The translations under genes were made by a program, and so were the position numbers. From IMG/VR virus record IMGVR_UViG_3300048609_000070: a DNA stretch of 64,000 bases; one strand, given 5' to 3'. How positions within the stretch are numbered: the stretch's first letter is position 1; every line of letters begins with the position of its first letter. This stretch comes from a virus. Positions 7,456-41,390 of the stretch are shown here, piece by piece. A model generated the notes under the pieces. The model saw only the letters and a program-made list of their open reading frames with translations. It did no database searches and was not told where the DNA came from.

Positions 7456-7808
7456 TGCATATATTCAAACCCGATCGTTGTTGAACCATCCTCATTACGC
7501 CGGTAGAAATTCGCGCCTCCTGGAACTTCAATTTCTGTGATCCGAGGATCCCATGTATCGGTGAGATCTTCTGGAAATCCTTTTAGAGTGACATAAGCAC
7601 TGTAAAAAGTAGGAGGACGATCTTCTTGGAGAAGGGTACGCTCGTTGTTTACAACGTCAAATTGCATGTCACCTTCGACCCAACGGTGATGTTCTTTTCT
7701 GACAAAAAAGCTGTGGGGCTTCTGCGGTATATCTAAAAAGTTCTTATACATGTTGACTCCTTTATTGTGCATATGCCAATTTTGGGGCTGCTTGAACGTT
7801 CTTTGCAA
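7374..7808 (-). CDS. hypothetical protein, tandem paralog A
   Basis: 144 aa. Shares MYKNFLD...EHH.WEEGG..FD.V.N motifs with the adjacent upstream ORF. Confidence 0.45.
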   Translation of the reverse strand: MQRTFKQPQNWHMHNKGVNMYKNFLDIPQKPHSFFVRKEHHRWVEGDMQFDVVNNERTLLQEDRPPTFYSAYVTLKGFPEDLTDTWDPRITEIEVPGGANFYRRNEDGSTTIGFEYMHCSKEISLEDVKATLQRFAQEIKKLKK

Positions 7809-8295
7809 ATTCTTTTAGCTCTTCTCTTACCTCTTCCAGCGTGATGTCTCTTGGACTATTCACGTGTGCAAAATCGAAACCAAGCGTGATAGACCCATCT
7901 TCGTTTGTTTGCGCGAGTGTGACTCCTCCATGGCACGAAAGTTTATCTCGTAGGAATCGAAGATTAAAATCTGGTCTGAAGATCAGCAGAAATGTAACAT
8001 AAGCACAGTAATAATTTATTGGAATTATTTCGGAGAGAAATTTGGCAAAATCTTCAGGCAGGTTCAATTTATTTTTGACGATATCGAAGCGAATACCTCC
8101 TTCTTCCCAGCAATGGTGTTCTTCTCTTGTAACTAAATATTGAATGTCTTCGTTGCTGCTGTCAAGAAAGTTCTTATACATTTTCTTTCCTGTATTCTGA
8201 AGGATCGCGCAGCAGAAAGTCAGAACCCCTGACATTCTGAAATCCACGTTTTTGCAGCATCGTTGCCAATCGCTCGTTGTGGACGCACTCAACAT
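7762..8295 (-). CDS. hypothetical protein, tandem paralog B (probable true start near 8180, MYKNFLDSS)
   Basis: Homologous to 7374..7808. The N-terminal extension overlaps the GNAT gene and is probably not translated. Confidence 0.4.
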   Translation of the reverse strand: MLSASTTSDWQRCCKNVDFRMSGVLTFCCAILQNTGKKMYKNFLDSSNEDIQYLVTREEHHCWEEGGIRFDIVKNKLNLPEDFAKFLSEIIPINYYCAYVTFLLIFRPDFNLRFLRDKLSCHGGVTLAQTNEDGSITLGFDFAHVNSPRDITLEEVREELKEFAKNVQAAPKLAYAQ

Positions 8296-8545
8296 AAATG
8301 GCCGTGTCTGGACACAAGGAAATTACTTCCTCCAAAAAACGTGAAAATATTCCTTTGCCTCTCTGACTCGTGGCTACTTCAACGTTCGCGATTTCAAAAA
8401 CAGGATCGAGCAAACGGCCTTCTACACACCGTTGCGTGTATCTGACATACATCGCCGTAAAGCCTGGAACGTCGATGTACGCGCGTCGCAGCAAACTTGG
8501 CCATCGGACAGATTTGGCCTGCGTCAAAAAAGTCTTTAGGTCCAC
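8174..8545 (-). CDS. GNAT family N-acetyltransferase
   Basis: 123 aa. Acetyl-CoA motif A Q-R-G-K-G-I-F-S-R-F-L-E. Confidence 0.6.
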   Translation of the reverse strand: MDLKTFLTQAKSVRWPSLLRRAYIDVPGFTAMYVRYTQRCVEGRLLDPVFEIANVEVATSQRGKGIFSRFLEEVISLCPDTAIYVECVHNERLATMLQKRGFQNVRGSDFLLRDPSEYRKENV

Positions 8546-8631
8546 TGTGGAAACTCCTTGCGTATTTTTCCTCCTTGTGGGATCTTAGCAAAGGATGACG
8601 GGAAGTCAACAGTTTATTTTGTGGAGGAAAC

Positions 8632-9690
8632 ATGCGAAAACTGGCCACAATTCGAAAGGTATTGGACATCAAGCCCATCCCAAACGCGGATAGCATTGAA
8701 CTCGCGATGATCGGGGGTTGGCAATGCGTCGTCAAAAAGGGAGAATTCAAAATTGGTGACTTGGGGGTCTACTTCGAAATCGATTCCTTTTTACCGATAG
8801 ACGCCCGGTTCGAGTTCCTTCGGAAGTCATCCTACAAGACCCTGGCTGATGGGTCTGAAGGATTCCGTCTGAGGACGGTCAAGTTCCGAGGAGAGCTCTC
8901 TCAGGGGCTCTTGATGCCCTTGAGCACGTTTCCGGAGATGCCTGTGGATACCTACGACGTGACCAGTGCGCTCCATGTCAAGCTCTACACGCCGCCCACT
9001 CCTGCGTGCTTGTCCGGGGACGTCGTAGGGCCATTCCCTTCGTGCATACCCAAGACGGACGCGGAGAGGATCCAGAACATCCCTGACTACTTTTCCACAA
9101 TGAAAGATGAAGAATTTGAAGTCAGCGAAAAGGTCGATGGCACCAGTTTGACATGTTATTTTTTGAATGGAAAGGTTGGAGTCTGCGGCCGGAACTGGGA
9201 GTTAAAAGAAGACATGCGAAATGCTTACTGGAAGATCGCAAGTTATTTTATTCCTGCAGTGAAGGAGCTCCATTTGAATATTGCACTGCAAGGGGAGCTC
9301 TGTGGGGAGGGCATCCAGAGCAACCCTCTGAAGTTGAAAGGACAGAGATTATTTCTTTTCCATGTGTACGATCTGGATGAGAGTAAATATTACATGCCTG
9401 ATCAGCGTTGGGAATTGTTTGAGAAAATAAAATGTGATGCGCTGGATCACGTTCCGCTTATCAGTAAAAGAGTGAAAGTTTTTCAAGAATTGGATACCAT
9501 GGAAAAGATGCTGGATTATGCAGCAGGAAAGAGTTGTGTTTGTTCGCAGATGGTAACTTCAAAGTCTGTCCAAAGAAGAGTCATGGTTCAATCCACGATA
9601 GAACGTGAAGGATTGGTTTTCAAGTCTTGGAGTCATCCAGAGATTTGTTTCAAGGCGGTGAGCAATACTTATTTGTTGGGTGAGAAGTGA
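8632..9690 (+). CDS. ATP-dependent RNA ligase, Rnl-like (DraRnl/NgrRnl-type N-terminal domain)
   Basis: 352 aa. Nucleotidyltransferase motif I KVDGTS (candidate adenylylated Lys in SEKVDGTSLT). N-terminal IRKV..I.PIPNADSIELAMIGGWQCVVKKGEFKIGD resembles the Rnl5-family N-domain. Confidence 0.6.
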   Translation: MRKLATIRKVLDIKPIPNADSIELAMIGGWQCVVKKGEFKIGDLGVYFEIDSFLPIDARFEFLRKSSYKTLADGSEGFRLRTVKFRGELSQGLLMPLSTFPEMPVDTYDVTSALHVKLYTPPTPACLSGDVVGPFPSCIPKTDAERIQNIPDYFSTMKDEEFEVSEKVDGTSLTCYFLNGKVGVCGRNWELKEDMRNAYWKIASYFIPAVKELHLNIALQGELCGEGIQSNPLKLKGQRLFLFHVYDLDESKYYMPDQRWELFEKIKCDALDHVPLISKRVKVFQELDTMEKMLDYAAGKSCVCSQMVTSKSVQRRVMVQSTIEREGLVFKSWSHPEICFKAVSNTYLLGEK

Positions 9691-10046
9691 AAACATCGCG
9701 GAGAGAGACGTTGGGAGACCGGATCAAGCGAGTCCGGACGGAGCGTGAGCTTGGTCTGCGTGAGACAGCAAGAAAGGTTGGCATTTCCGCAACGTTCCTT
9801 TCGCGGGTTGAGCACAATGACAAAAGGGCCGTTCCAGGTGAGAAAGTCATACGCACGTTGTCTGTCGTGCTAGAGGATGATTTTGACACGATGATGCAGC
9901 TTGCAGGGCGCATTGCACACGATGTTGCTAGCGTGATCAAGTCCGACGTGGGGATGCCTGCTTTTCTCAGACGTGTTCGTGATCAGGGAATCTCCTCGAA
10001 TGATCTGATGAAGCTGCTGGATCTACTGGACAAGATAGGGAGGTAA
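9687..10046 (+). CDS. XRE-family helix-turn-helix transcriptional regulator
   Basis: 119 aa. HTH LRETARKVGISATFLSRVEHNDK. Start overlaps the stop of the RNA ligase. Confidence 0.6.
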   Translation: MKTSRRETLGDRIKRVRTERELGLRETARKVGISATFLSRVEHNDKRAVPGEKVIRTLSVVLEDDFDTMMQLAGRIAHDVASVIKSDVGMPAFLRRVRDQGISSNDLMKLLDLLDKIGR

Positions 10047-10054
10047 AAGGACAC

Positions 10055-10321
10055 TTATTGAAATCTGGTTCGTAAAAGCTGTTGGATGTCCTCGGTGATA
10101 TCAGCCGACCTTTTTTCAGTTAATTCCTTAGCGTAATTTTGCATAAGATACGAGTTGAGAGCAACAATGGTATCTCCAATCTCTGCTATTTTTTTAGCAG
10201 TTGGATATTTTATTCCTGTATTTGCTGCTTTGGAAAATTCTTCAAAAGATTTATTTATTATGGTCCAAGCTTCAAAAAGTTTGTCTAAGAAATCGAAATA
10301 ATTCTTTTTGGTATCAGACAT
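10055..10321 (-). CDS. hypothetical protein
   Basis: 88 aa ORF. Confidence 0.35.
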   Translation of the reverse strand: MSDTKKNYFDFLDKLFEAWTIINKSFEEFSKAANTGIKYPTAKKIAEIGDTIVALNSYLMQNYAKELTEKRSADITEDIQQLLRTRFQ

Positions 10322-10324
10322 AGA

Positions 10325-10735
10325 CTATTCCTCGTCTTCTACATATTTTTCATCAGGATCGTAAAAATCGTCGTCTAGTATGTGATAAGTAAACGTATGG
10401 TCGTGGATCTTTACTGTCAGATCCGCTGGGATAACGAAGTCATCGACTTTGCTAAAATGGTGAAAGTCTATCTCTTCGATAGTAATATCTGCTATATTTA
10501 CTTTTTTGCTGTTGAAGAATGTGTGTTCGTCTTCACATTGTAAGCATTCTTTTTCTGTCTCGAATTCTGCACTGCAATAGCTGCAACGATAAATTATTTG
10601 CATGTTAATTCCTTTGATTGCTTCCTGAGTAGGATACTTCAAGTTCTTCGCTCGAAGAAAGAACACGCTTCTTTGGGAAATACTTTCCACTCCTGGCGCA
10701 AGAAGACCCAAGGATAGGATCTCTCCGAGATGCAC
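10325..10735 (-). CDS. small C4 zinc-ribbon protein (paralog of 7039..7455)
   Basis: CSYCSAEFETEKECLQCEDEH motif. Acidic C-terminus. Confidence 0.4.
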   Translation of the reverse strand: MHLGEILSLGLLAPGVESISQRSVFFLRAKNLKYPTQEAIKGINMQIIYRCSYCSAEFETEKECLQCEDEHTFFNSKKVNIADITIEEIDFHHFSKVDDFVIPADLTVKIHDHTFTYHILDDDFYDPDEKYVEDEE

Positions 10736-10938
10736 ATATAGACTTCTTTTGATACGGTCCTTTGATTGGTGATTTCACGTTTTTCCATCCGATGTAGCTC
10801 GGAAGTTTACATGCAAAACCCAATGCGCCGACCACGAACCAGAAAAATGTTTTTTAGGTACTCCTTTCCTAGAGTATGCTAGTGATTGTGTATAATGACA
10901 CGATGCCGAATTATCTTGCACGCTATGACTTCTTTTTT

Positions 10939-11379
10939 TCACTCGCAATCCCACTCGCTAGAATGCCAATCGGGATGTACCGTTTTTTGTACTTTATCGA
11001 TCCCAGATTGTAAGCTTGCAATAACAAGAATAAACGCTGCTAGTGCAATTGAAGGGATCTTCCCTAACCAAAAATAGGTTGCTACAACGGCTGAGATTCG
11101 CAATAGGTATTTCAGGACGACCAATGTTCTTATAAAGATTTTGAAGAGATGATTCAGTTGAATTTTTAGTGCGTGATTTTCAGACCACAGCGTATCTCTG
11201 TCCTTCTCTGTCATTTTCTTCCTCTTTGTTTCTGTTGAAAATGTCCTGTGGAGCAGGTATGTATGAATCTCCGTTTGGGAACCAGAAATCGTATTTAATT
11301 TTCCAGAGCTAGAATTTGCTCTATCGTTGCAAATAGAGACATTTCTAACTTTTCGTCTATACCATATTAATTTGTGCAT
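10939..11379 (-). CDS. hypothetical membrane protein
   Basis: 146 aa with hydrophobic C-terminal segments. Confidence 0.3.
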   Translation of the reverse strand: MHKLIWYRRKVRNVSICNDRANSSSGKLNTISGSQTEIHTYLLHRTFSTETKRKKMTEKDRDTLWSENHALKIQLNHLFKIFIRTLVVLKYLLRISAVVATYFWLGKIPSIALAAFILVIASLQSGIDKVQKTVHPDWHSSEWDCE

Positions 11380-11400
11380 TAGAATTTCCCTGACCCTTCA

Positions 11401-12108
11401 TTAGTCCCCGGGTCTAACAAGGTATCGATTGCGAAATTTTTCAGCAGTGGGATCTTTATCTGGTGGAACCTCTTTGAGCTTAGACCGAGCTTCTGCCAGT
11501 CTTTTTGTTGCTTCTTCTTGCGTTTCACCAACAGAGACGAGCATTGCAGGATAATAAAATGTTGCGTGGAAACTGCCATTGGTTCCTTGAAATTGTGCTG
11601 TATAGTCGTCAAAGGAACCTTCCCATGTTGTAAATGTTCGTGTAGCATACCACGCTACCCACCACGTATTAAAGAAGTAGTCCCTGAACGTTGACTTATC
11701 ATCCCAATTAGGATCAAATACATGTTCTTCGTAGTATTCTTTTTCATACTGCTCGCTATATTTATTTTCAAGGTTTGGAAAAATGTGGTTATAGATGAAA
11801 GCATTCAGTATTGTTCCGATAGAACCGGGTAATGCGTCTATTTTAGCTACATTTTCTCCCATGTCGTTTTGGTCATACATAATATAGTCGTAGTGCGCAT
11901 CGTCGTCGGCTATCTTCAAGGAATGAACAATATTGGAATCCATCGAAAGTAAACTGATCGCAGCTTTTAAATTTTTCATTTTAATTTCCCTCTGCCCGTT
12001 AGGGCCATACCGTTGACGAACTTTTGCTTCCGGATACAGAGAATTCATTACAGAAAGGGCTTGTTCCACTTGAGGTTTGCGCGATAGATACTTCACCAAG
12101 AAGAGCAT
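11401..12108 (-). CDS. hypothetical protein
   Basis: 235 aa ORF. Confidence 0.4.
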   Translation of the reverse strand: MLFLVKYLSRKPQVEQALSVMNSLYPEAKVRQRYGPNGQREIKMKNLKAAISLLSMDSNIVHSLKIADDDAHYDYIMYDQNDMGENVAKIDALPGSIGTILNAFIYNHIFPNLENKYSEQYEKEYYEEHVFDPNWDDKSTFRDYFFNTWWVAWYATRTFTTWEGSFDDYTAQFQGTNGSFHATFYYPAMLVSVGETQEEATKRLAEARSKLKEVPPDKDPTAEKFRNRYLVRPGD

Positions 12109-13094
12109 AGTATCTGTTTAAAAAGTCTGTGACTTCCATTCCAGGTCTGGAGTTAAGATAAGGATAACCAATTCGGCGTTTCCTCATGAGATTCTGCTCC
12201 CAGAGATCGAAAGATCAATACGAGAATAATGATTTCCACTGACTGTTCGAGAAGTAGCAATCGATGAATACTTATAGCACGTATAGGAGCTACACTGACA
12301 ATTAGAGGAGCTATTTATTACCATATTTTTTGATGTGTTTCGTCGCATGAAGACCTGTAACTCCGTGTGATAGAAAATGTATACGGAAATGATTTTGAAG
12401 TAGCTGTAAGAAGAAAAGTACCGGTTCCAGCATACGATCTTCCACAACAAACTATGTTTGCCAAGCAGAATGAAGCAGGGCTTCTTCTTGATTTTTTAAT
12501 AGTTATTTCCATACATTGTCTTTTTCGAGCTAAAGGACCAAGGCGTTTTTCTTGCCAAGTTCTGAATGATAGTAGCTAAAGATTGTGAGTATGAATTATG
12601 TATGGAATCAGCTGCTGAGCTTGTTCTATCCCAGTTAAGTGAAAATGCTCTTGTGAGAGAAAAAGATGCAATACGTGATATATGTAAGTTCCTAAGTATC
12701 ATGAATTTGTTCTGCTTTCTGATCGATCAGTTTTTCTTGTTCTATATTGAATTAATTTAAACAAAGAGTGTGAAAACGACTTATGTTGAGAATCCGAGGT
12801 TGAATTTCTTCTCTTCCAAATAAGGTCAAACGATCTTGTGGATGAGTGCGATGACACATGCGATAAGTAGTAGTTATAATATTTCATTTTCCAAGCAGCC
12901 CAATGACGAAATATTCTACAAGGAGATCAGGATCAAATCCATGGTCTGCACCATTTTTTGAAGCTACGCGAATGGCCCATCTAGCAGCTTCTTTGACATC
13001 CTTCTCTATTTTTTTTCTCTTAGGAGCCCCCATGGCCACGTACATCGGCGTTGGTGGTGCATCTGTACCTTCTTTATATAGCCAATGATCTTTT

Positions 13095-13565
13095 TCAAGA
13101 GAAATTTTTTTCATACCACTCCTCAAATTCTGGAAATTTTATAGTTCTTTTTGGGTTATGCACGTCGTTCCAAGCTTTGATAGCTCCGTTTCGATCTACG
13201 AAGGATTTACCATTTTTTCGACAATTTTTGCAAAATACGACGTATTTTGACTGGATTTGTTTGATTCTAAGATTTCTCCCTTCGCACGCACAGGAATTTA
13301 GTATGTACCTATTTAGATAATACCTGTATTCATTCATAGAAATTTTGCATAGGCGCCGAACGTGGTTATCGTAAGGCTTGGATGACCCAATTTTTTGCCA
13401 GTCTTTTAGCCGGGCCTTGAGGAAGTAATAGGACTCTTCCAGATCATCGATGGAGGGTCCTTCCATAGATCCGTTTGCTGTCATGTGCAAGAAGCTAATG
13501 CACTGAAAAAGTTCGTATTTATACCTACTAACATTCTTTCCATTGATGGTATAGTAGCTCGTCAT
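13095..13565 (-). CDS. hypothetical protein with Lar-like (restriction alleviation) C-terminal zinc-ribbon domain
   Basis: 156 aa. C-terminus CKNCRKNG..NGAIKAWNDV resembles the Lar-family signature (NAAIKAWN). Confidence 0.35.
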   Translation of the reverse strand: MTSYYTINGKNVSRYKYELFQCISFLHMTANGSMEGPSIDDLEESYYFLKARLKDWQKIGSSKPYDNHVRRLCKISMNEYRYYLNRYILNSCACEGRNLRIKQIQSKYVVFCKNCRKNGKSFVDRNGAIKAWNDVHNPKRTIKFPEFEEWYEKNFS

Positions 13566-13749
13566 TTTTTTTACTCTCTCGGGCCTAGTGAACGGACTCT
13601 AGCCAGTCCCTTTCTTCTGGTGTTAGCGCGTACCAAGGTTCGTCCATTTGGTCTCGAATCTCGTCGGCTTCTTCTGAGTCTCCTTTTCCTTGCGCGATTA
13701 ACTCTTTGAGTTTTTCTTCCAATTCTAAATATTGTGCAAGCGCAGTCAT

Positions 13750-14328
13750 TTATTTCTCTTTCTGTGATCTTATAAACTCTTCCGATGGCATCCACTTTCT
13801 ATGTTCTAAGGATAATACCTCTGGAACATGCTGGATAAAGAGTGGATTATGCACGGAAGCAATGATTTGCACGTTGTGTTCTTCAACGATTTGATCGAAC
13901 AGCTTTAAAACAGTGTATGCTGATCGCACCGATAAAGACCCGTCAGGCTCGTCTTGGAATATCGTTGCGTTCTTTATCTTTTTGTTTTTCAAGCAAGAGA
14001 GAATACCTAATGTTGTTTCTCCATGCGAGGAGAACAGCGCGGAGACTTCCGCCAGTACATTATTTGAAAATCTTGGTTGAAGTCTTGGATTGTCCCTCTC
14101 GAAATCGAAGAAGTAAGTTACCGTTTTTTGATCGAATTTCAACTTTGCGAAGAACTTGCTCTTTTCTTTGTTTTCTCGATGTTGGGAATATTTTTTGCTA
14201 ACTCCTAACAGCGTAGATTTTCCAGTTCCCTGATCTCCTACGAGGAAGTTTATTCCTTTCCGGAACTCAAACTTGTCTCCTGTTTTGAAGCAACGGTGAT
14301 CGGATGCAAATGTAATTGATAGTAACAT
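13750..14328 (-). CDS. P-loop ATPase (AAA_15/ABC-like)
   Basis: 192 aa. Walker A GDQGTGKST. Walker B IFQDEPDGSL. Confidence 0.55.
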   Translation of the reverse strand: MLLSITFASDHRCFKTGDKFEFRKGINFLVGDQGTGKSTLLGVSKKYSQHRENKEKSKFFAKLKFDQKTVTYFFDFERDNPRLQPRFSNNVLAEVSALFSSHGETTLGILSCLKNKKIKNATIFQDEPDGSLSVRSAYTVLKLFDQIVEEHNVQIIASVHNPLFIQHVPEVLSLEHRKWMPSEEFIRSQKEK

Positions 14329-21229: not shown

Positions 21230-22560
21230 TCCTCCTAAAGAGCGCGCTCTTGGGCAAGGAGACTGCCGTCTTTAGGCAGCAGAGGAATTGCCATTTTCCT
21301 TTCTGTTAGGTATTGACACACACCAGAGAAGTATCTATACTTGACGCCATGAAGCTCGTTGCGAACATCAAGTTGAAACCGACGCAGGAGCAAGCAACTA
21401 TCCTCAAGCAAACCATTGAAGTATCCAACGAAGCCTGTAATTATCTGTCTAATCGTGCTTGGACCACGAAGACATTTGGTCAGTATGCCCTGCATAAATT
21501 GGCATACCGCGAAACCAAAGAAAGATTCAAGCTTACTGCTCAGGTTGTTGTACGATCTATTGCCAAGGTTACCGATGCCTATAAGCTGGATATAAAGACT
21601 AAACCGTACTTCAGGAAATATTCTGCTCAACCCTATGACGAACGGATTATTAGATTTTCTAAAGACGATATCGTTTCGATCTGGACTATTGCTGATCGTC
21701 AAAAGATACCGTTTGTGATGGGCGAGTACCAACGCAAGTTGTTTTTCTTCCGCAAGGGAGAAGTTGACCTGATGATGATCGACGATGAATTTTACCTTGC
21801 TTGCGTCTGCGACATCAAGGACCCCGAGCTTATCCAGACCAATGATATTCTTGGAGTAGACTTTGGTATAGTCAACCTTGCTGCCGACTCCAATGGGAAA
21901 AACTACAGCGGAAAAGCAATCAACAAGAACAGATGCAAATTTTCTCACCGCAGAAGAAATCTTCAAAAGAAGAAAACCAGATCCGCCAAACGGAAGCTTC
22001 GGGGTATGTCTAGACAGCAAGAACGCTTCCAGAAGGATACCAACCACGTAATCTCGAAAGCAATCGTTGCAGATGCTAAACGCACCGTCTCTGCTATCGC
22101 TCTTGAGGATCTTCGCGGTATCAGAAAACGGGTAACGGCCAGAAAGCACCAGCGGGCGCGGTTGTCGAACTGGGGCTTCGCCCAGTTGCAAGCCTTCGTG
22201 ACGTACAAAGCGAAGAAGATGGGAATACCCATTATTCTTGTAGATCCTAAGAATACTTCTCGGGAGTGCCCTAAGTGTGGACATATCGACAAGAAGAATC
22301 GAAAGACAAGGGATGAGTTCGTTTGTATCAAGTGCGGTCTTGCTGGACCCGCTGATACAATTGCGGCATGGACAATTCGTTCCAGGGCCAGGGCTGCTGT
22401 CAATCAGCCGATGGTTTCGAGTGTTTGTGCAAGCTTGCATGACCTCTCAGAAACAAGCCGCCCGCTTTAGCTGGCGGTTATTGACAACCAACAGGTTACT
22501 CCGTTTTCTTCGGGCTGTCAAGCACTTTTTTCGGCTATCCGCGATCTGGTCCCGTCTTTT
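21230..22560 (+). mobile_element. IS605-family (IS1341-like, tnpB-only) insertion; ends approximate
   Basis: tnpB flanked by hairpin-rich subterminal sequences. Candidate omega-RNA region with hairpin CCGCCCGC...GGCGG at about 22470-22560. Lies between rmlC and rmlD. Confidence 0.5.
21313..22470 (+). CDS. tnpB: IS200/IS605-family TnpB (RNA-guided nuclease), catalytic motifs intact
   Basis: 385 aa. RuvC-I ILGVDFGIVNLA. RuvC-II AIALEDLRGIRK. Zn finger CPKCGH...CIKCG. RuvC-III PADTIAAWTI. Confidence 0.85.
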   Translation: MTHTREVSILDAMKLVANIKLKPTQEQATILKQTIEVSNEACNYLSNRAWTTKTFGQYALHKLAYRETKERFKLTAQVVVRSIAKVTDAYKLDIKTKPYFRKYSAQPYDERIIRFSKDDIVSIWTIADRQKIPFVMGEYQRKLFFFRKGEVDLMMIDDEFYLACVCDIKDPELIQTNDILGVDFGIVNLAADSNGKNYSGKAINKNRCKFSHRRRNLQKKKTRSAKRKLRGMSRQQERFQKDTNHVISKAIVADAKRTVSAIALEDLRGIRKRVTARKHQRARLSNWGFAQLQAFVTYKAKKMGIPIILVDPKNTSRECPKCGHIDKKNRKTRDEFVCIKCGLAGPADTIAAWTIRSRARAAVNQPMVSSVCASLHDLSETSRPL

Positions 22561-23594: not shown

Positions 23595-24062
23595 TTAGGA
23601 ATTCTTCAGTAGATCAATGAGCTTTTCTGTTACCACGAAGTTGAATTCGTCGTAATATTTTACGTCCGTCACTGTTGTACGTTTGCTATGTTGATCTATG
23701 GATAGACTGGTTTTTCCTTTATTTGTGTGGAGTATTAAGAAGAACGTGTGATTACTAAAGATGAATTTAATCGACGTAATCCAGACATAATATGAAATTG
23801 CCCGTTCTACAAATGTAATGAATTCTGTAGGGATGTCACTTTGCGTTTGTTTTGTGGCGTCAGAAAGATAATCAAAAAATTTTTTTAGATTCTGCTCTTT
23901 GTCTTGGGTGAGATCACAGGTATTTTTCAAGAGTTCCTCCTTTGCGGGTACTAACGATGACGGTGATTCTAAATACGAAAAAGGACATGTCAATCCTGAA
24001 ATCTTTCGGATGTGTTGGGAAAAGTCGAATCGACCGACAGCACACTGGCAGTTAGAAGACAA
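23595..24062 (-). CDS. hypothetical protein
   Basis: 155 aa ORF. Confidence 0.4.
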   Translation of the reverse strand: MSSNCQCAVGRFDFSQHIRKISGLTCPFSYLESPSSLVPAKEELLKNTCDLTQDKEQNLKKFFDYLSDATKQTQSDIPTEFITFVERAISYYVWITSIKFIFSNHTFFLILHTNKGKTSLSIDQHSKRTTVTDVKYYDEFNFVVTEKLIDLLKNS

Positions 24063-24479
24063 TGCTGATAAAGCCGAAAGTGATTAGTCTGTATACTGAG
24101 TGGGATCACGACGTTCGAGACATTGGTGTCCATTCTTTATTTTTCTTGTACGTGATTTTCAACCTGCGTCCGTTTGTGGACGTCCTACCGTCCAGGGCCT
24201 TCGTCCGCCATCCCCCTTTGAAAAAACCTTTATGCTAGTCCTCTGGACCCCCACCCATGATGGTGGACCTTGTTGATGTGTCCGTCGAGATCATGACGTC
24301 CTGGATCATCTCATCGTGGCAGCCTAGTCTAGAGGGACGGCTAGACAGGGCTGTCTGTAACATCGTAATACAGCACCAGAGGTTGTCGCCGGTCACGCCA
24401 ACCGACGACGAGGGACATCCTCCGGGATCGAAGGGTCGTCTAGAGCCTTCAGACTGTATTGTAGCGATGTTCTCTGGGA

Positions 24480-24790
24480 AGTCAACTTAAATTTTTGGCT
24501 GGTCATGATCTATTGTCCCCGCTTCCAGTACTCCCGGTCCCGCAATCTGATGGAGCAGTGGCGCTGTCCCAGGTCCTATACCTGTGTCGCAGCATCGTCC
24601 CTGTCTATGTTTCGCCGGGTCTCGTCCCTGTGTGTCCCGTATGTCACTGGTGGTCCCGTTATGGCGTCTTCAGCCCGCCGAGCGTACAGTCTAGTCCGAG
24701 AGCTCCTTTTAGTATGGGTTGTCCCACCGGTTGATGTCTCGGTTCGTCCCAGACCGAAGCCTTCAGTTTGTCCCTTACACGTCCCTGTCT
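24480..24790. repeat. GTCCC-motif array (about 12 copies at 10-30 nt irregular spacing) downstream of the Cas12-like gene
   Basis: GTCCC recurs (GTCCCCGC.., GTCCCGCAAT.., GTCCCAGG.., GTCCCTGTC.., GTCCCGTATG.. etc.). The plus strand is pyrimidine-rich. No convincing ORF. Confidence 0.6.
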
Positions 24791-27700
24791 CAACCTAAAC
24801 TTTGATAACTTTTTGCTTCGACTGCTTTCCAGAAGACCGCGGCTTGAACCCACACGCTCGGGTCGAAGAATGTTCCGGAGGGGTCACGGAAGAGGACCAT
24901 CTTGTTTTTCTCGTTGATTTTGACATCTATCTTTTTTGTAGCCATCGCCGTGTACGTCCCATTACCGTCCTTCTTGAAAAATTCAACAGCATCACTCTTG
25001 AAGTGTCCCTGCAGAATTTTTCCGAGCTCCAGGTTCAGTAGGTGTCCGTCTGTCTCGTATGCCACAGCGCGTACAGGATTTGCACTCCCTGTCAAATAAT
25101 TCATACCGTGATTTTGAGCAGCGTTGACGTCAACGTGGATCCGTGACCCGTCGCTTGTGACAAGGTATGGCCCTCCAGGAACTGGAATCAAATCCCGTCG
25201 CTTCAGCTGTAGCAAGTCTAGCTTAGCCTCTTTTACGAATGGTCGGAGCCAATGTCCTTGCGTTTGGATCGCATTTACTTCCTCGTCACTCTTTATTTCG
25301 TAGCATGCAATCCCTGGCGTTCTTGTCCCAGCGCTAAAGATTGAGGAGAAAGCAACGGGTGCTTTGCCAATGGCAAAGCCTTCGGCTTTGGCCCTTCGTT
25401 CGATTTCTTGTGCAATAGAGCGGTGACTCCATTGTGCAAGACGGACGTTTTCCTCAAGGTCCTGATCCTCGGTGATTCTATATCGTGTCAAGTCACCGAG
25501 GACGATAATATCCACAGGAGTATACGTATGACTCCAACTTTTATTTGAATAGGTATTTCCTTTTGCCGCCTCAATTATAAATGCTGTGAGCGTCTTGATC
25601 CGATCCATCTTCAAGTTCTGGATATGGACCAATAATCGAGATGCTACCACGCCTTGGGTAGACTTTTCCATCCGGCGAACTGGATAGTCAGGGCGAGAAT
25701 GCCGATCCCACGCTCTGATGAGATCTCGCGTTTTCTCCAGATAAGCAATCCGCCATATGGACTTTCCTCCAAGAGTCATCTTCTCCTGTCGCCAATCGTG
25801 AATATCCTTGGCGATGCGTGTTTCCTCCTCGAAATAGATTGGGCGCATGATTCGTTCCCAATTCTCGTGGGGGCAACCATATAGGATGCTCAACTCTCTA
25901 TGCACATCTTTATCGAGCTTTCCTCTCATCCCATTGAGGAGCTCTTTCCTTACTTCAGGATCTTGTGTCCCGTGCAATTGCCTTAAACCTGATAGTTTAT
26001 CGAGTTCCCTCCCAATGCGCCATAACCGCTCTTGCGCTTCCTTGCGTCCTTCGATCGCTTTCTCTGCGGGCATACGCAGCAAAAACGTCTGCTCATGGTG
26101 GATCTTGTGCCCTTCGACAGACCATAGCGGGTCTGTGCTTTTTTCTGCCCCGACCTCGAAAATTGAGCATGTGGCTGACACTCTAATGCCCAGGTGGACT
26201 GCCATGATTCGAATGCCAGGGACGATAGGAGATTTTTTCTCCGCAGATCTTGTAATTTTGCTCTTTGAAAGATACCTTGCAATGTCTCTGCGATCGACCG
26301 TAGGAATTTTTGTCTTGTGCTCCTCGGTCTCTACATTGACCGAGAGCATCAAGTAGGCCATGGCTCCGGGTCGTCCATCTCGGAGCTTCCAGGCACTTGT
26401 CGGATCGGACACGAATCGAGGTGATAAGATGAGAGACGCTCCTCCGGCAATGCTGACTTTTCGTTGGATATTGTCTTGCGATTCATACGATAGATACTGC
26501 TTTTTCTTGTCGTCCCACATTTTGAGCAGACGCAATTGGTATGTTGGTGCAATCTGGAAAAAGAATTTACGAATGCAGACCCCATCTGAATCCTTAGAAA
26601 ATAACGGCAGATCTACACAGAGTCCCTGTTCATTTTGTTTGAGCGTATAAGGCGGGTTGTTTCGATTTGAAAGTCCCGAAAATAGGGTGAATCTCGGATG
26701 GGTCTCTGCATCCGGAAAAGTGAGCATTGGGAGTTCTTTTGCTTCCTGAATCTTTTTTAATACCTTGTTTTTCTTTGCCCAATGAAAAACAGCATCCGGG
26801 TCGTCGAAGGCTTCTTTGGCGAGGTCAAGTAAGATGGTGGATCCGTGGTCCCCAGCTTGTACAATTCTTTCTCTTTGGTCCGTGATACCTTTAAGCTTTT
26901 TCCAATTTTTTATCTCTCGCTCAGTGATGAGATAGGCAGATTTTTCTGCCCAATTTCCAGCTCTTTTGATCTGTTCTTCCCTTTTCTGTTCAATACAGAT
27001 CAGAGTCTGCGAGTCCCTTTCGCTATACGGATTTCCTAATTTTTCCAGTTCTGCCTCTAGATCTTGTGTCCGTGCTGTGAGATTATGCCGCCAGCTTTCC
27101 CAGGAATTGAGATGTCCAACGGCGAGGGTGAAAGCCATACGCTCGTAGGCTTGCAGAGCTGTGGTCCCTAAAATGTCAAAGAGGAATGGATCAGCAAGTG
27201 GAAGCGCCCCGAGTGAACGGATCTCGCTCACCAGCGAATCCATTATCAATTTTTCTTTATTGGATGCAACGTACTTTGTTGCTGCATCTTTCCAGCCGGG
27301 ATCTCCTGTCTTGAACAGAGTCAGCCAATGTGCTTCCCTGCCGACTGAAGGTCCCATGAAAAGGGAATTATTCTTGATCTGATCTTCCAGGTTGGATTCA
27401 CTATCCATTATTCGCTGGAGGGTCCGAACGAGATTTGCCGCGTGAGATCCTCCTTGGGATTCTTTCTGCACGAGGAGGCCCTGGTAGCCTCGGACTTCAT
27501 CGGCAGATCCAGAGCCGCCCTCGCGGTAGGACTCGACATAATAAGGATAGAGCTCCTTTAATAAGGAGCAGCATCTATCAATATTTTTTACTTTGCGTTC
27601 CTTGAGCTTTGCCTGCAATCGGGACGTCCATTCGGAGCCCGGGACAGTCTCTTTTTCGAGCCGGACGTCATCCTGACGAATGGTCACGAGCATCTTTTCA

Positions 27701-27813
27701 TAGAAACGCACCATGTCGTTCACGATCTGATGCGTATACGCTAGAGCTCTTGCCCCATCAGTATTGGATTTTCTTGGAACGTGAAGTTTTAATCGTATAG
27801 CTCTTGTGTCCAC
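24790..27813 (-). CDS. Cas12b (C2c1)-like type V effector homolog, predicted nuclease-dead (GTG start)
   Basis: 1007 aa. RuvC-I region IMAVHLGIRVSATCSIFEV matches Cas12b ..SVDLG.R.SA..SVF.V but has His in place of the catalytic Asp. RuvC-II IIVLGDLTRY compared with Cas12b ILLEELSEY. Cas12b-like RLAQWSHRS. FSSIFSAGTRTPGIACYEI compared with FSSRFDARTGAPGIRC. RuvC-III HVDVNAAQNHG is retained. RBS GAGGGAG upstream of GTG. Confidence 0.75.
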   Translation of the reverse strand: MDTRAIRLKLHVPRKSNTDGARALAYTHQIVNDMVRFYEKMLVTIRQDDVRLEKETVPGSEWTSRLQAKLKERKVKNIDRCCSLLKELYPYYVESYREGGSGSADEVRGYQGLLVQKESQGGSHAANLVRTLQRIMDSESNLEDQIKNNSLFMGPSVGREAHWLTLFKTGDPGWKDAATKYVASNKEKLIMDSLVSEIRSLGALPLADPFLFDILGTTALQAYERMAFTLAVGHLNSWESWRHNLTARTQDLEAELEKLGNPYSERDSQTLICIEQKREEQIKRAGNWAEKSAYLITEREIKNWKKLKGITDQRERIVQAGDHGSTILLDLAKEAFDDPDAVFHWAKKNKVLKKIQEAKELPMLTFPDAETHPRFTLFSGLSNRNNPPYTLKQNEQGLCVDLPLFSKDSDGVCIRKFFFQIAPTYQLRLLKMWDDKKKQYLSYESQDNIQRKVSIAGGASLILSPRFVSDPTSAWKLRDGRPGAMAYLMLSVNVETEEHKTKIPTVDRRDIARYLSKSKITRSAEKKSPIVPGIRIMAVHLGIRVSATCSIFEVGAEKSTDPLWSVEGHKIHHEQTFLLRMPAEKAIEGRKEAQERLWRIGRELDKLSGLRQLHGTQDPEVRKELLNGMRGKLDKDVHRELSILYGCPHENWERIMRPIYFEEETRIAKDIHDWRQEKMTLGGKSIWRIAYLEKTRDLIRAWDRHSRPDYPVRRMEKSTQGVVASRLLVHIQNLKMDRIKTLTAFIIEAAKGNTYSNKSWSHTYTPVDIIVLGDLTRYRITEDQDLEENVRLAQWSHRSIAQEIERRAKAEGFAIGKAPVAFSSIFSAGTRTPGIACYEIKSDEEVNAIQTQGHWLRPFVKEAKLDLLQLKRRDLIPVPGGPYLVTSDGSRIHVDVNAAQNHGMNYLTGSANPVRAVAYETDGHLLNLELGKILQGHFKSDAVEFFKKDGNGTYTAMATKKIDVKINEKNKMVLFRDPSGTFFDPSVWVQAAVFWKAVEAKSYQSLG

Positions 27814-27839
27814 GGATTTCTCACTCCCTCATTTATTTG

Positions 27840-28365
27840 GTCTCTTTTACCGTATCTGCATCAGTATTCCTTTGTCTCTAGCTTCTTTGTCGTGCTCCGG
27901 ACATTGCGTCTCGTTCTCTTTCTGTCTCTTTTTTCCGTTGGGCTGTTCGACCCGTCTCTTATCGTAGTAAATTTTTATCACCTGTCTCTTTTTTCTTTTG
28001 TTTCAAGAGGTCTCTTTTTTCCATCTTTTGTACGATAATCTACTGGTTGTATGCCGCCACGCCAGCGACATACGAGAGACATCCAGTAGGCCCCCTGGGT
28101 CGTGTAGAGCCAGGTTAGTAGATCGTACTTTATATCTCTGAATTTCAAAGAACTCTGCGCGAGTATTGTATCTTTCCCATCCATTGCCTCGTCTGTCTCA
28201 CCCCAAACCAAAAATCGCTTTCGTGTCTATTTCCGTTTTCCTCGATGTCTCAGTCCCAGCAACAACCGGCTGGGGACACGTCTCATTATTCACTCGTAAC
28301 ACTAGGCTCCAGTCTCTTTTTCGCTTTAGAGTAGAAGTTCTCATCCGGTCTCGTAATTGCCGTCT
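27840..28365. repeat. GTCTC-motif array 2 (about 18 copies; extended form GTCTCTTTTT(T)C) between the promoter and the Cas12-like start
   Basis: The plus strand is almost pure pyrimidine except G in GTCTC. Motif spacing 14-45 nt. No stop codons on plus only because of A-depletion. Transcribed on the minus strand from the promoter at 28374-28401. Confidence 0.65.
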
Positions 28366-28373
28366 CAGTATCA

Positions 28374-28401
28374 ATTCTAGCATGCCCACTTTTTTTGTCA
28401 A
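28374..28401 (-). promoter_or_regulatory. consensus sigma70 promoter (minus strand): TTGACA-16nt-TAGAAT with AT-rich UP region
   Basis: RC of 28374-28410 reads AATTAATTTTTCTCTTGACAAAAAAAGTGGGCATGCTAGAAT. Near-identical to the promoter at 30343-30370. Confidence 0.6.
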
Positions 28402-28618: not shown

Positions 28619-29395
28619 TCATGTGTTCCTCTCTGCTTGCATAGGGTCTCTTTGCATCCTCTCCAGCAGTCCGTAATATGCGGAGGCTAATCCACATTGG
28701 TCGCAAAGTTGAGTGAGTCCGACAGTCTCTATGATACTTTTTGTGCTTTCAAAAACACTCCCAATTTCCGTGCAGCTAGAGCATTCTCCGATTCTTATTT
28801 TTCCATTGACATCGATCATAGGAGAACACATTTTTCCAATTCTTTGTAATGTTCGGATCATAGTAACAAAATTCGCTTCCCGGAATTGCAATGCGAAAAG
28901 ATGAACGTTAGCGCAATGCGGAAAAACACGTTCACTTTTTGTATAGTTCTTTTTTGCTCGTCCTAAAAGTGTGATGCTAATCCCATCCTCGAAAAGTTGA
29001 GTGTTGGGGAGAGTCTCTAGCTTGAGATTTGCATGTATCACATGATAATTGGGGTAATATTTTGGGTGCGTCCTGATTTGCAAGCGTATGTTGGTAGTGG
29101 TCAGAAGATCCAACATATTGCGGTATTTTTCTTGGTCTGTATAGAACGAACCGTTACTCTGGATCATGATATCAGATTCAGGGAATACTTTACTGACGAT
29201 CTTGGCCCATGAAAAAAAGGAAGGGTGAAGTGTCGGTTCTCCACCTGTAATCTGGATTAAAATCGGTTTGACCTTCCGCAGCAATTTTAATGTAGCTGCA
29301 AAAGTCTTTTGCTCCATGTGCTCCCCGGAAGGATTTGCATCCTCCATGCAATGCGAGCAATTTTCAAGGCATCGGTTTGTAATTTTTACGAGCAT
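28619..29395 (-). CDS. radical SAM enzyme with C-terminal extra Cys cluster (twitch/SPASM-like)
   Basis: 258 aa. CxxxCxxC (CLENCSHC). GGEP motif (ITGGEPTLHP). C-terminal CSPM...GECSSCTEIG...CDQCG. Confidence 0.7.
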   Translation of the reverse strand: MLVKITNRCLENCSHCMEDANPSGEHMEQKTFAATLKLLRKVKPILIQITGGEPTLHPSFFSWAKIVSKVFPESDIMIQSNGSFYTDQEKYRNMLDLLTTTNIRLQIRTHPKYYPNYHVIHANLKLETLPNTQLFEDGISITLLGRAKKNYTKSERVFPHCANVHLFALQFREANFVTMIRTLQRIGKMCSPMIDVNGKIRIGECSSCTEIGSVFESTKSIIETVGLTQLCDQCGLASAYYGLLERMQRDPMQAERNT

Positions 29396-39540: not shown

Positions 39541-41390
39541 GGGCTGACGGGTTCATCCCGTCAGTCCCCTGCCACACCACCGGACATGCGGGTCCGCATC
39601 CGGCGGTTCGGTAGGTTGAGGTTATGCCGCAAGCCTCGGTACTCCTTGTCGGTCGTAGTAGCTCGTCGGCAGCGCAGTGTTCAACAGCTTCGCGGAATTG
39701 CACCACCAGCGGCGTGAGTTCGCGGCCACCCGCCGGGCGGCCTGGTCATTCGCTCCAAGCCGCTTCATCTCCCGGTAGATGGTCTTCCCTCGTATCCACT
39801 GTTTGAGCTGTATCATCCGCAGACGATGGCGTATCCATTCGTCGAGATTCATGAAGATGCCAGGCGTCTCGGCCAGGCGGAAATACCCTTTCCACCCAAG
39901 CAGGTAAGCCCGTAGCTCCGCGAACACCCGATTCATGCTCCGCCCTCGACTCCGGGTCGTGATGTCCCGGACCCGCTGCTTCATCGCTTCAAGGGCTTTT
40001 GGCGCCACGCGCCGCCGGACGACCTTTCCCGGGGCTACCCAGAAGCTGTACCCCAGGAACTTCCTTTCCCACGGTCGTGCCACCGCGCTCTTCATCTCGT
40101 TGACTCGCAGCCGTAGTCGCGCGTACAAGTCCCGAAGGGCCCGCATCACACGCTCGCCAGCTCGCTGCGACCCAACGTACACGTTGCAGTCATCAGCGTA
40201 GCGGACAAACGCATGCCCACGCTTCTCCAGCTCCTTATCCACTTCGTCGAGGAGCACGTTCGCCAACAGCGGTGAGAGAGGGCCGCCCTGCGGCGTCCCC
40301 TCGTACCGCTCCGTTGCCACCCCTCCCGCCATGATGCCGGCTTCGAGGTAGCGCCGGATGAGCCCCAGCATCCGCCTGTCTCCAATGCGCTTCTCCAGCC
40401 TCCCCATCAGCACGTCGTGGTTGACCCGGTCGAAGAACCGCTCCAGGTCCACGTCCACCACCACCCGCCTCCCTTCCTGGACATACCGCTGCGCTTCGCA
40501 GACCGCGTCGTGTGCGCTATGCCCGGGCCGAAAGCCGTGGCTGTGCTTCGAGAAGGTCGGGTCGAACATCGGTTGCAGGACCTGCAGGATGCTCTGCTGG
40601 ATGAACCGGTCGAGCACGGTTGGGATGCCAAGCTTTCGCACCCCGCCCCCGCTCTTCGGTATCTCCGCTTCCCGCACCGGTTTCGGCTGGTAGGTGCCTT
40701 CGAGCAGCTGCGCTCGAGTCGCCTCCCAGTGTTCAATCAGGTGCTTCGGCAGCTCGTCGACGGTCATCCCGTCCACACCGGGGCTGCCCTTGTTCTGCCG
40801 TACCCGCTTCAACGCCGCCTTGGCATTGCCGCGCTCGACCACCCGTTCCATCAGGTGGTCGATTCCTGAGCGCTCATCTCCGTTCGCCGCCGTCGGGGTT
40901 TCGCCGCTCCGTTGGGCCCTCGGGGCTTCACCCCTGCCTCCCAGCGGTAGCTCCAGCTGATTGGACTTCTGGCGCCTGACCCTTCCGAGACTCACGGTTG
41001 CCTCGCTCTCCCTTCCGTTCGGCCCTTCGCCGTTGCCGGCTACTATGGCCTCTGCTGACTTCTCGGTCCGGCTTTGTGCCGTCGCCCTTTCAGGCGTGGG
41101 CCGAGATCTCCTCAGGTAAGGGTTCATGGACTTCGCCGCACAGCCGCCGGATTTACGTCGTCTGACTCTTGGTCGCGAGGGCTTCGCGGTCCTTTGCCCG
41201 CTCGCCCTTGTCGACGCCGCCTTGTATCCGGTTCTTGTTCATCGGCTCGCGGCTTCACTACCCGCTTCTTTCAGCGCCGGCCTCGCGGCCGGACCGGTCT
41301 CCCGGCTTGCCGCCTTGCGGTTCGTGTGGGTCGCTGCGACCAACTCCCCAGGGGACTTTCACCCCCTGTCCATTCCCATGCTGAGCACAC
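39538..41390 (-). mobile_element. bacterial group II intron (about 1.85 kb); boundaries approximate
   Basis: 5' end GUGUGCUCAGCAUGG... at RC of about 41390. Domain V-like hairpin CCGCCGGATGCGGACCCGCATGTCCGGTGG and domain VI GGGGACTGACGGGATGAACCCGTCAGCCCC near 39541-39620. IEP in domain IV. GC about 62% against a flank of about 38%. Confidence 0.8.
39622..41127 (-). CDS. ltrA: group II intron-encoded reverse transcriptase/maturase
   Basis: 501 aa. RT motifs: GIPTVLDRFIQQS. GFRPG.SAHDA. YADD in FVRYADDCNVYVG. Maturase X domain. Confidence 0.9.
   Translation of the reverse strand: MNPYLRRSRPTPERATAQSRTEKSAEAIVAGNGEGPNGRESEATVSLGRVRRQKSNQLELPLGGRGEAPRAQRSGETPTAANGDERSGIDHLMERVVERGNAKAALKRVRQNKGSPGVDGMTVDELPKHLIEHWEATRAQLLEGTYQPKPVREAEIPKSGGGVRKLGIPTVLDRFIQQSILQVLQPMFDPTFSKHSHGFRPGHSAHDAVCEAQRYVQEGRRVVVDVDLERFFDRVNHDVLMGRLEKRIGDRRMLGLIRRYLEAGIMAGGVATERYEGTPQGGPLSPLLANVLLDEVDKELEKRGHAFVRYADDCNVYVGSQRAGERVMRALRDLYARLRLRVNEMKSAVARPWERKFLGYSFWVAPGKVVRRRVAPKALEAMKQRVRDITTRSRGRSMNRVFAELRAYLLGWKGYFRLAETPGIFMNLDEWIRHRLRMIQLKQWIRGKTIYREMKRLGANDQAARRVAANSRRWWCNSAKLLNTALPTSYYDRQGVPRLAA

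Follow-up and report, generated by a model that had tools for sequence, protein, structure and literature searches.

The effector Cas12b of type V-B CRISPR systems works with a duplex of CRISPR RNA (crRNA) and trans-activating crRNA (tracrRNA). Repeat and anti-repeat pair twice in this duplex, in a long stem and in a short stem of 5 bp; the short one separates the long stem from the guide and forms a pseudoknot (PMC11246509). The 2025 CRISPR classification also lists Cas12b3, an inactivated form of V-B that occurs in nature and is described from conjugative plasmids of Actinomyces, where a mini CRISPR array with normal repeats accompanies it (Makarova et al. 2025; PMC12669027). Here, we analysed a 64-kb stretch of viral DNA (IMG/VR record IMGVR_UViG_3300048609_000070), referred to as the window, and focused on the tail at 24090-24790 that follows a cas12b-like gene. 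We propose, with moderate confidence, that this tail serves a derived type V-B system as its RNA module; the system is probably nuclease-dead, and its repeats would have shrunk to a 5-nt motif. The scaffolds, motif arrays and promoters described below all lie on the minus strand, which is the strand of the gene, and are read in that sense.

The cas12b-like gene (24790..27813, minus strand) encodes a protein of 1007 amino acids. The open reading frame (ORF) matched the family profiles NCBIfam NF033949 Cas12b (4e-92) and PADLOC Cas12b (1e-129), its product carries the Pfam C2c1 RuvC, helical and Nuc-II domains of the Cas12b architecture, and the best relative in the PDB was AacC2c1 (7e-43). Alignment to AacC2c1 structures and 44 homologues showed that RuvC-I reads VHLG in place of the usual VDLG (D to H540), that RuvC-II reads LGDL in place of the usual LEDL (E to G773), and that the RuvC-III Asp is retained (D895). 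The D-E-D triad is intact in 33 of the 44 homologues, and independent losses of the triad were observed elsewhere in the family (P0004, P0012, P0015, P0020 and P0037). With two of its three RuvC catalytic residues replaced, the window protein is probably nuclease-dead.

In a library of 1.84 billion representatives no relative of this protein exceeded 37% identity, a first genome scan gave no closer relatives, and a metagenome scan yielded a single contig, L001. This sole divergent sister sequence covers the tail of the locus only. Its protein is 97% identical to the window Cas12b over residues 555-1007, and has the same Gly in RuvC-II and Asp in RuvC-III. The two genes differ with a ratio of non-synonymous to synonymous divergence (dN/dS) of 0.049, at a dS of 0.26, and this comparison indicates a cas12b gene that is under strong purifying selection and is not decaying.

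In the genomic relatives that were fetched, the usual order is cas12b, a gap of ~400 nt and the CRISPR array, and the gap contains an alignable RNA. A covariance model, R1, was built solely from the tracrRNA cores of 13 ordinary Cas12b loci, with the window excluded. The R1 structure has three helices, namely H1, P1 and a hairpin enclosed by P1; in the 13-sequence alignment 82% of cells are paired and compensatory changes occur in 19 of 22 pairs, and none of 500 shuffles reached the observed value. Across the window R1 gave two matches only, at 24450→24370 and 28114→28034, and none further up to E = 10. The E-values of R1 are rough owing to a shortened calibration, and the argument is borne by the bit scores and two controls: R1 had no match at E ≤ 10 in 752 kb of unrelated viral contigs, and matched 12 of 29 untrained Cas12b loci, once each, on the strand of the gene and downstream of it, at 25-66 bits. 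None of 4227 Rfam families matched either window scaffold at gathering or E-value thresholds.

The match that lies in the tail, tracr-2 (core 24370..24450, minus strand), scored 26.6 bits (E = 1.8e-4; 2.6e-5 with filters off) and coincides with a block in which the original prediction had noted a raised GC content and inverted repeats. The GC content is indeed 0.63 over 24370-24450, and both of the repeats named were present. GAAGG...CCTTC corresponds to helix H1 (GAAGG/CCUUC) of tracr-2, whose P1 is CCGGAGG/CCUCUGG and whose second hairpin is GUCGUCGG/CCGGCGAC, and GTCTAG...CTAGAC forms a hairpin in the 3' extension of the RNA. Judged by the covariance model, the GC-rich block 24450→24370 is a Cas12b tracrRNA homologue with a conserved core fold. 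Its short anti-repeat, GUCCC, is found at 24416→24412 in the context AU-GUCCC-UC.

A sigma-70-type promoter, TTGACT-16-TACAAT (24458..24485, minus strand), precedes tracr-2, with a predicted transcript start at ~24450-24452, and is kept in L001. The R1 match begins at 24450, the usual 6-8 nt past the -10 element and hence at the expected transcript start, 340 nt after the cas12b stop codon. The position of tracr-2 next to cas12b, on the same strand and with its own predicted promoter, is the tracrRNA layout seen in loci L002-L005 and L180. The core is identical to that of L001 at 81 of 81 positions, while the adjacent gene has diverged to the dS given above.

Beyond the core, a 3' extension of tracr-2 (from 24369 to about 24222, minus strand) is 132/141 identical in L001; the conserved length is ~150 nt, and the extension contains a U-run at 24228-24223. 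The position of the long anti-repeat in this extension reads UGCUGUAUUACGAUG. The hairpin GUCUAG-CCGUCCCU-CUAGAC (24347-24326) carries a second GUCCC (24338→24334) in its 8-nt loop. In L001 this loop is invariant, and the stem is without two of its pairs.

The original prediction had proposed the tail as a candidate site of the guide-RNA scaffold. Most of the interval can be retained as an RNA module, with the exception of ~24090-24220, which corresponds to the 3' end of an antisense gene of the Xre helix-turn-helix (HTH) type. The remnant of this gene (23899..24087, plus strand) lies outside the RNA module. In L001 the gene is intact (1997-2413, minus strand), encodes 138 amino acids, is antisense to the tracrRNA and has its own promoter region; the window keeps a C-terminal remnant only, with ~330 nt missing. 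A candidate 'GGAC array' downstream of tracr-2 was dropped, as the stretch proved to be this antisense remnant.

The second R1 match, tracr-1 (core 28034..28114, minus strand), lies inside the cas12b leader and scored 28.5 bits (E = 6e-5; 9e-6 with filters off). Its short anti-repeat is GUCUC (28080→28076, in the context AU-GUCUC-UC). The cores of tracr-1 and tracr-2 are alignable, and the stretch upstream of tracr-1, TTGAAA-15-TACGAT, aligns to the tracr-2 promoter; by sequence, the two scaffolds are paralogues. When tracr-1, tracr-2 and the tracrRNAs of L180 and L011 were aligned, 91% of cells were paired and 17 of 22 pairs showed changes on both sides, in an alignment that was fitted to the model and so leans toward the R1 structure.

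Downstream of tracr-1, a possible handle of a cis-encoded mini-crRNA (27954..27966, minus strand) could form an 8-bp helix with this scaffold in canonical geometry (p ~0.01, with the geometry imposed). Here UACGAUAA can pair with UUAUCGUA (28038-28031), the stretch that immediately follows the tracr-1 core, and abuts GAGAC at 27958; after this motif comes GGGUCGAACAGCCCAACGG (27953 onward). The unit at 27966-27954 may represent a cis mini-crRNA with GGGUCGAACAGCCCAACGG as its candidate guide, for which no target was found.

The short anti-repeats gain their significance from comparison with related loci. In eight such loci, which include the closest relatives, each normal ~36-nt repeat ends in GGGAC, GAGAC or GGAAC, directly before the spacer. 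In all 13 loci of the model, the repeat closes with 5 nt that are exactly complementary to the tracrRNA at a single fixed position, the pairs being GGGAC/GUCCC in L002, L004 and L005 (~30% identity), GAGAC/GUCUC in L003 (~30%) and GGCAC/GUGCC in the other nine. Exact complementarity of the short repeat was also found in L180 (P0003, 37% identity; GGGAC with GUCCC) and L193 (P0007; GAGAC with GUCUC). Two further loci pair partly through one G·U: L192 (P0004), with repeat end GGGAC and tracrRNA GUCUC, and L194 (P0015), with GGAAC or GGGAC and GUUCC or GUCCC.

The GUCCC of tracr-2 and the GUCUC of tracr-1 are the exact complements of two 5-mers, GGGAC and GAGAC (together GRGAC), that recur in three arrays of the window, and by analogy with the relatives these motifs may be the short repeats that precede guides. 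Array C (24515..24791, minus strand) starts at the cas12b stop codon, contains 11 GGGAC and 3 GAGAC without any long repeat, and probably lies within the cas12b 3' untranslated region (UTR). The original prediction had counted about 12 GTCCC at 24480-24790. On the plus strand we found 11 GTCCC and 3 GTCTC in 24515-24789, which read GGGAC and GAGAC on the minus strand; the 11 GGGAC compare with 0.36 expected from the rest of the window (Poisson p = 2e-13), and the other strand of the array carries no copy of the motif. The spacing of 10-30 nt given earlier was roughly right, as measured intervals range from 5 to 68 nt in array C, and from 5 to 91 nt in all arrays.

The description of GTCCC as a C-variant of an upstream GTCTC motif was borne out by arrays A and B, in which GAGAC dominates. 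Array B (27840..28366, minus strand; 13 GAGAC and 1 GGGAC) consists of two blocks that flank tracr-1, between a promoter at 28401-28374 and the start of cas12b. Array A (29412..30310, minus strand; 27 GAGAC and 7 GGGAC; p = 2e-33), in which an A-run often stands before the motif, lies between a promoter at 30370-30343 and a radical SAM gene. Both promoters are near-consensus and read TTGACA-16-TAGAAT. The 29400-30335 stretch holds 27 copies of GAGAC and the 27814-28375 stretch 13, compared with ~1 per kb elsewhere in the window. R1 did not detect a third scaffold in array A, even with filters off. The arrays and both scaffolds were recovered at 100% identity in an independent assembly (Logan SRR33185868, loci L198 and L199), and the region is therefore not an assembly artefact. 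A third strain was sought through exact-protein look-ups, and the Logan contigs obtained were 100% identical to the window.

The scaffold variant tracks the array variant: the scaffold next to the GGGAC array has GUCCC, and the one within the GAGAC arrays has GUCUC. The latter 5-mer can pair with GAGAC and, by way of one G·U, with GGGAC; no pairing is possible between GUCCC and GAGAC. The C-variant that sets the downstream array apart from the upstream arrays is therefore a matched change in scaffold and array. Where the GTCCC array and the hairpin-dense block had been taken together as the scaffold, this holds for the hairpin block; the array is instead made of the 5-nt motif that in this Cas12b clade is the short repeat before guides, complementary to the GUCCC of the scaffold.

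In total, the arrays hold ~60 motifs on a single strand, at a density of one per 21-28 nt. Across the three arrays, 30 of 58 intervals between motifs fall within 20-36 nt, compared with 27% expected (p = 6e-5). The motifs are strand-specific, and in predicted folds are slightly more accessible than their surroundings. No minus-strand reading frame is open across the arrays, and the plus-strand ORFs at 24257-24798, which had been dismissed as artefacts of skew, are not kept in L001, where they meet non-triplet indels and, in the array, replaced blocks.

Comparison with L001 also addressed the selection acting on array C. The first 73 nt are identical (73/73) and the last 73 nt mostly conserved, with AAACUGAAGGCUUCGGUCU and AUCAACCGG among the conserved units, while the middle 143 nt are largely replaced in L001 by other units that keep GGGAC, some of which resemble diverged duplicates of their neighbours. 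The motif total is 14 in the window and 16 in L001. The first 73 nt and the tracr-2 core are identical between the strains, and the middle units have been replaced with the motif kept; the comparison therefore indicates selection on the motif and on some specific units, with turnover of the other units through local duplication.

How does this locus compare with the systems described previously? With the type V-B dual guide it shares the effector family, the scaffold core fold described by R1, the position of the short anti-repeat, a 5-nt short repeat identical to that of the nearest relatives, and a scaffold beside the gene with its own promoter. The long repeat/anti-repeat duplex, 36-nt repeats, regular spacers and cas4/1/2 of the dual guide were not found in the window, which in turn differs in having two scaffold paralogues with different anti-repeats, arrays in mRNA leaders and a 3' UTR, and a RuvC domain that is probably inactivated. 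Cas12b3, compared here by its description, resembles the window in its RuvC-I and RuvC-II substitutions, its absence of adaptation genes and its predicted mode of binding without cutting; however, it has a mini-array of normal repeats, unlike the window, which is without a normal repeat and has 40-50% GC.

Within the same clade, L192 (P0004, Q/N/R at the triad), L194 (P0015, N at RuvC-I) and L011 (H at RuvC-I) likewise combine altered catalytic residues with a lack of adaptation genes, but differ from the window in that all keep ~36-nt repeats with long-repeat pairing. Their arrays are small: two repeats in L192, a good one and two degenerate ones in L011, and, in L194, six modules that combine a tracrRNA with a mini-array. 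L194 shares with the window the presence of several tracrRNA copies with two anti-repeat variants (GUUCC and GUCCC). Its six tandem modules (7744-12987) follow Cas12b, and each comprises a promoter, a tracrRNA copy (25-39 bits; GUUCC or GUCCC) and a mini-array in which the repeats terminate with GGAAC or GGGAC; gene calling gave no adaptation gene for this locus. In the 13441-13900 stretch of L011, a Thermoguttaceae Cas12b locus, a strong tracrRNA match scored 51 bits, and the mini-array is much like those described for Cas12b3. Among all loci fetched, repeats reduced to a 5-mer were seen in the window locus only.

The original prediction had also pointed to the guide RNAs of TnpB (omega-RNAs) and TldR. 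The window shares with these a scaffold just past the 3' end of a gene of the RuvC family, and TldRs are nuclease-dead repressors. The two differ in that the window scaffold does not overlap the gene, starts 340 nt after its stop codon from its own promoter, matches the tracrRNA model and has no evident fixed 3' guide. The expectation of a guide-RNA scaffold in the tail, for which the Cas12b tracrRNA had been named as one model, is supported: the scaffold is a tracrRNA homologue, unlike the omega-RNA and TldR types, which are joined to the gene at its 3' end.

In the mechanism that we propose, the window Cas12b would bind the tracr-1 and tracr-2 scaffolds, and the short anti-repeat of each would pair with GRGAC in the array transcripts, that is, in the 5' leaders for arrays A and B and in the cas12b 3' UTR for array C. 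This pairing would produce the 5-bp pseudoknot known from Cas12b, where it lies directly 5' of the guide, and ~20 nt downstream of the motif would thereby be presented as guide. With RuvC inactive, the complex would bind DNA without cutting it, resulting in silencing or regulation. The arrays would accordingly represent guide arrays with repeats that have shrunk to the short repeat. The weakest step of this proposal is the delivery of guides by the arrays, as opposed to mere docking or titration of the complex. The perfectly conserved units of array C and the 20-36-nt mode of the intervals favour guides, whereas the purine-rich, duplicative nature of arrays A and B and the many short intervals favour docking or decoy sites.

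Several observations set the locus apart from an ordinary CRISPR locus or weigh against a guide-array function. No CRISPR array or direct repeats were detected in the window by Tandem Repeats Finder and repeat searches, and tblastn with the Cas4-Cas1 and Cas2 regions of six loci as queries gave no match to cas4, cas1 or cas2 in the window. Searches of the window for a long repeat that could pair with either scaffold yielded a single 8-mer, for tracr-1. They were made with blastn-short, with RNAduplex on the 30 nt that lie upstream of each motif, for exact helices, and for the complement of the stretch after P1 with 3 mismatches allowed, and apart from the tracr-1 8-mer they returned results at the level of the shuffled background. 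The long-anti-repeat stretch of tracr-2 is nonetheless conserved, and its partner, a normal array, could lie beyond the window in the 136 kb source contig. In BhCas12b, scrambling of the long anti-repeat led to loss of targeting in all but one of the constructs tested (PMC11246509), so that 5-bp pairing alone appears weak. The minimum free energy of the whole tracr-2 RNA is no better than that of shuffles (z = -1.0).

The arrays themselves also depart from what is expected of CRISPR arrays. The shared unit is 5 nt, or ~10 nt with the A-run, and not a near-identical direct repeat of 23-55 nt; the intervals are not uniform in length, one third of them are <20 nt, and the units have a biased composition and are related to one another. 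In arrays A and B, 68% of the strand is purine, and the purine-rich stretches that separate the motifs are similar to each other. The units private to L001 resemble diverged duplicates, and by sequence the array units appear to arise by local duplication and not by capture of foreign DNA. No guide target was identified, whether in the window, in collections of phages or plasmids, or in IMG/VR: the 16 nt after each motif gave one chance-level match in the window at ≤2 mismatches, the best candidate guide gave only chance matches of 16-17 nt in IMG/VR, and no similar DNA was found in phages or plasmids.

Arrays like those of the window were not found in IMG/VR either, where a pattern of three AAAGAGAC returned chance matches or ordinary repeats only, and a candidate similar array in L033 proved to be a normal CRISPR array. 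Past their ordinary CRISPR arrays, two relatives have short purine-rich clusters: in L180 (12480-12580 and 12760-12880) these combine an A-run with GCGGACA, GGGCACA or GGCACG, and in L004 (4620-4720) a cluster of the same kind includes four tandem 23-nt units with CGGAC. These clusters resemble the window arrays, and may reflect the same phenomenon beside normal arrays.

A reading that we hold to be possible, but doubtful, sees the arrays as docking or decoy ('sponge') sites. Single-stranded GRGAC motifs, present in number in the UTRs of cas12b and of the radical SAM operon, would bind the short anti-repeat of the complex of scaffold and protein, and so titrate this complex or let it feed back on its own mRNAs; the real guide would come from elsewhere, for example from the cis unit at 27966-27954 or from an array outside the window. 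Arrays A and B suit this role, being not only purine-rich but poorly structured, with ~40 accessible motifs, and being placed inside mRNA leaders behind strong promoters. The behaviour of the units between strains, which look like locally duplicated copies with a motif number that is kept as the intervening sequence turns over, is also in line with a sponge, and many intervals are too short to hold a guide. However, the perfect conservation of the first 73 nt of array C, inter-motif sequence included, in the face of a dS of 0.26 argues that specific sequences matter. The clustering of intervals at 20-36 nt also speaks for guides, and the literature that we searched offered no precedent for such decoys.

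We also entertain, tentatively, the idea that the scaffolds capture any stretch of GRGAC-rich transcript through the 5-bp pseudoknot, with the dead Cas12b using the adjoining RNA as its guide, or else that the arrays gather many complexes on a single RNA, which would act as a regulatory or structural platform, possibly tied to the neighbouring radical SAM and vault-protein-like genes. A parallel is found in the reprogrammed Cas12b tracrRNAs Rptr and PUMA, which share with the window a short pairing of the scaffold with a motif-carrying RNA, but are an engineered tool (PMC11246509). Transcript capture by the window scaffolds would be the native counterpart of such engineered tracrRNAs. RNA anti-CRISPRs derived from solitary repeat units are phage-encoded repeat mimics that sequester Cas components. 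Neither these nor Rptr/PUMA are known in the form of a native 5-nt motif array that adjoins its own effector.

Much less probable is that the arrays are ordinary CRISPR arrays in decay, no longer functional, within a system that has lost adaptation, such that only the tracrRNA and perhaps one guide still work. The lack of cas1/2/4 genes and of a canonical leader octamer, the retention of nothing but mini-arrays in relatives with dead or impaired RuvC (L192 and L011), and the instability of the middle of array C between strains would all be expected of decay. Yet decay would erase the last 5 nt of the repeat as well, and leave at most one motif per ~72 nt, far from the density and the single-strand bias that were observed. 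It would explain neither the match between the motif variant and the anti-repeat of the neighbouring scaffold nor the perfect conservation of parts of an array, and ~1.7 kb of dead spacer-like DNA would presumably be unusual for a bacterial genome. As for the octamer, GGTTCGCG or its complement CGCGAACC occurs two to three times in the presumed CRISPR leader, between the tracrRNA and the first repeat, of Cas12b loci from different phyla (L002, L004, L005, L007, L019, L026, L027 and L035); the window has a single copy, well away from the Cas12b locus.

We consider it extremely improbable that the motifs act at the DNA level, as protein-binding or clustered type IIS restriction/methylation sites unlinked to the RNA scaffold; GGGAC is recognised by BsmFI and GTCTC by BsmAI. 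In favour of such a role, some arrays of protein sites are likewise composed of short motifs confined to one strand, and restriction-modification genes are present in the window. Against it, both scaffolds carry the exact complement of the motif where the functional short anti-repeat lies, and this complement varies together with the array; the relatives have CRISPR repeats that terminate with these 5-mers, and the irregular spacing is unlike that of iteron-like sites. Array decay and a DNA-level role both fit the data poorly, given the density of the motif, its strand specificity and its co-variation with the anti-repeat.

The genes around the locus include several of unusual type. Just upstream of array A, 30392-32899 (minus strand) encodes an 835-amino-acid protein with Major Vault Protein shoulder and Vault_3 repeat domains, and is preceded by a gene for a 210-amino-acid protein of no recognised family (32951-33583, minus strand). 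Between arrays A and B, 28619-29395 (minus strand) encodes a radical SAM protein of 258 amino acids, whose weak viperin-like matches were the only trace of a known defence system among the neighbours. Each transcription unit of the vault, radical SAM and Cas12b stretch has a near-identical TTGACA-16-TAGAAT promoter, and on account of these promoters the neighbouring genes may form one system with the Cas12b. Elsewhere, the window contains two TnpB (IS605 OrfB) genes (21313-22470, plus strand; 43771-44811, minus strand), a group II intron (41022-41292, minus strand), and genes for HsdM, an RNA ligase, a RlaP-type nucleotidyltransferase and the rhamnose pathway. This gene content suggests that the window is a defence and mobile-element island.

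An arrangement of GRGAC array and tracrRNA without a full repeat was not found among the related loci compared or in the literature searched. The locus offers a compact (1007 amino acids), natural and probably non-cutting Cas12b, together with two scaffolds of different 5-nt specificity and ~60 candidate docking or guide sites. The R1 model, for its part, finds Cas12b tracrRNAs, for which Rfam gave no match at either window scaffold. If the 5-nt motif loads a guide, the long repeat duplex would not be strictly needed by Cas12b, arrays could be far more compact than CRISPR arrays, and guides might be drawn from ordinary transcripts. If the arrays instead serve as decoys or in feedback, they would represent a mode of control of an RNA-guided protein that was found in none of the literature searched. 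Either way, the locus would exemplify a third outcome for CRISPR effectors that lose their nuclease, beside recruitment by transposons and mini-array repressors.

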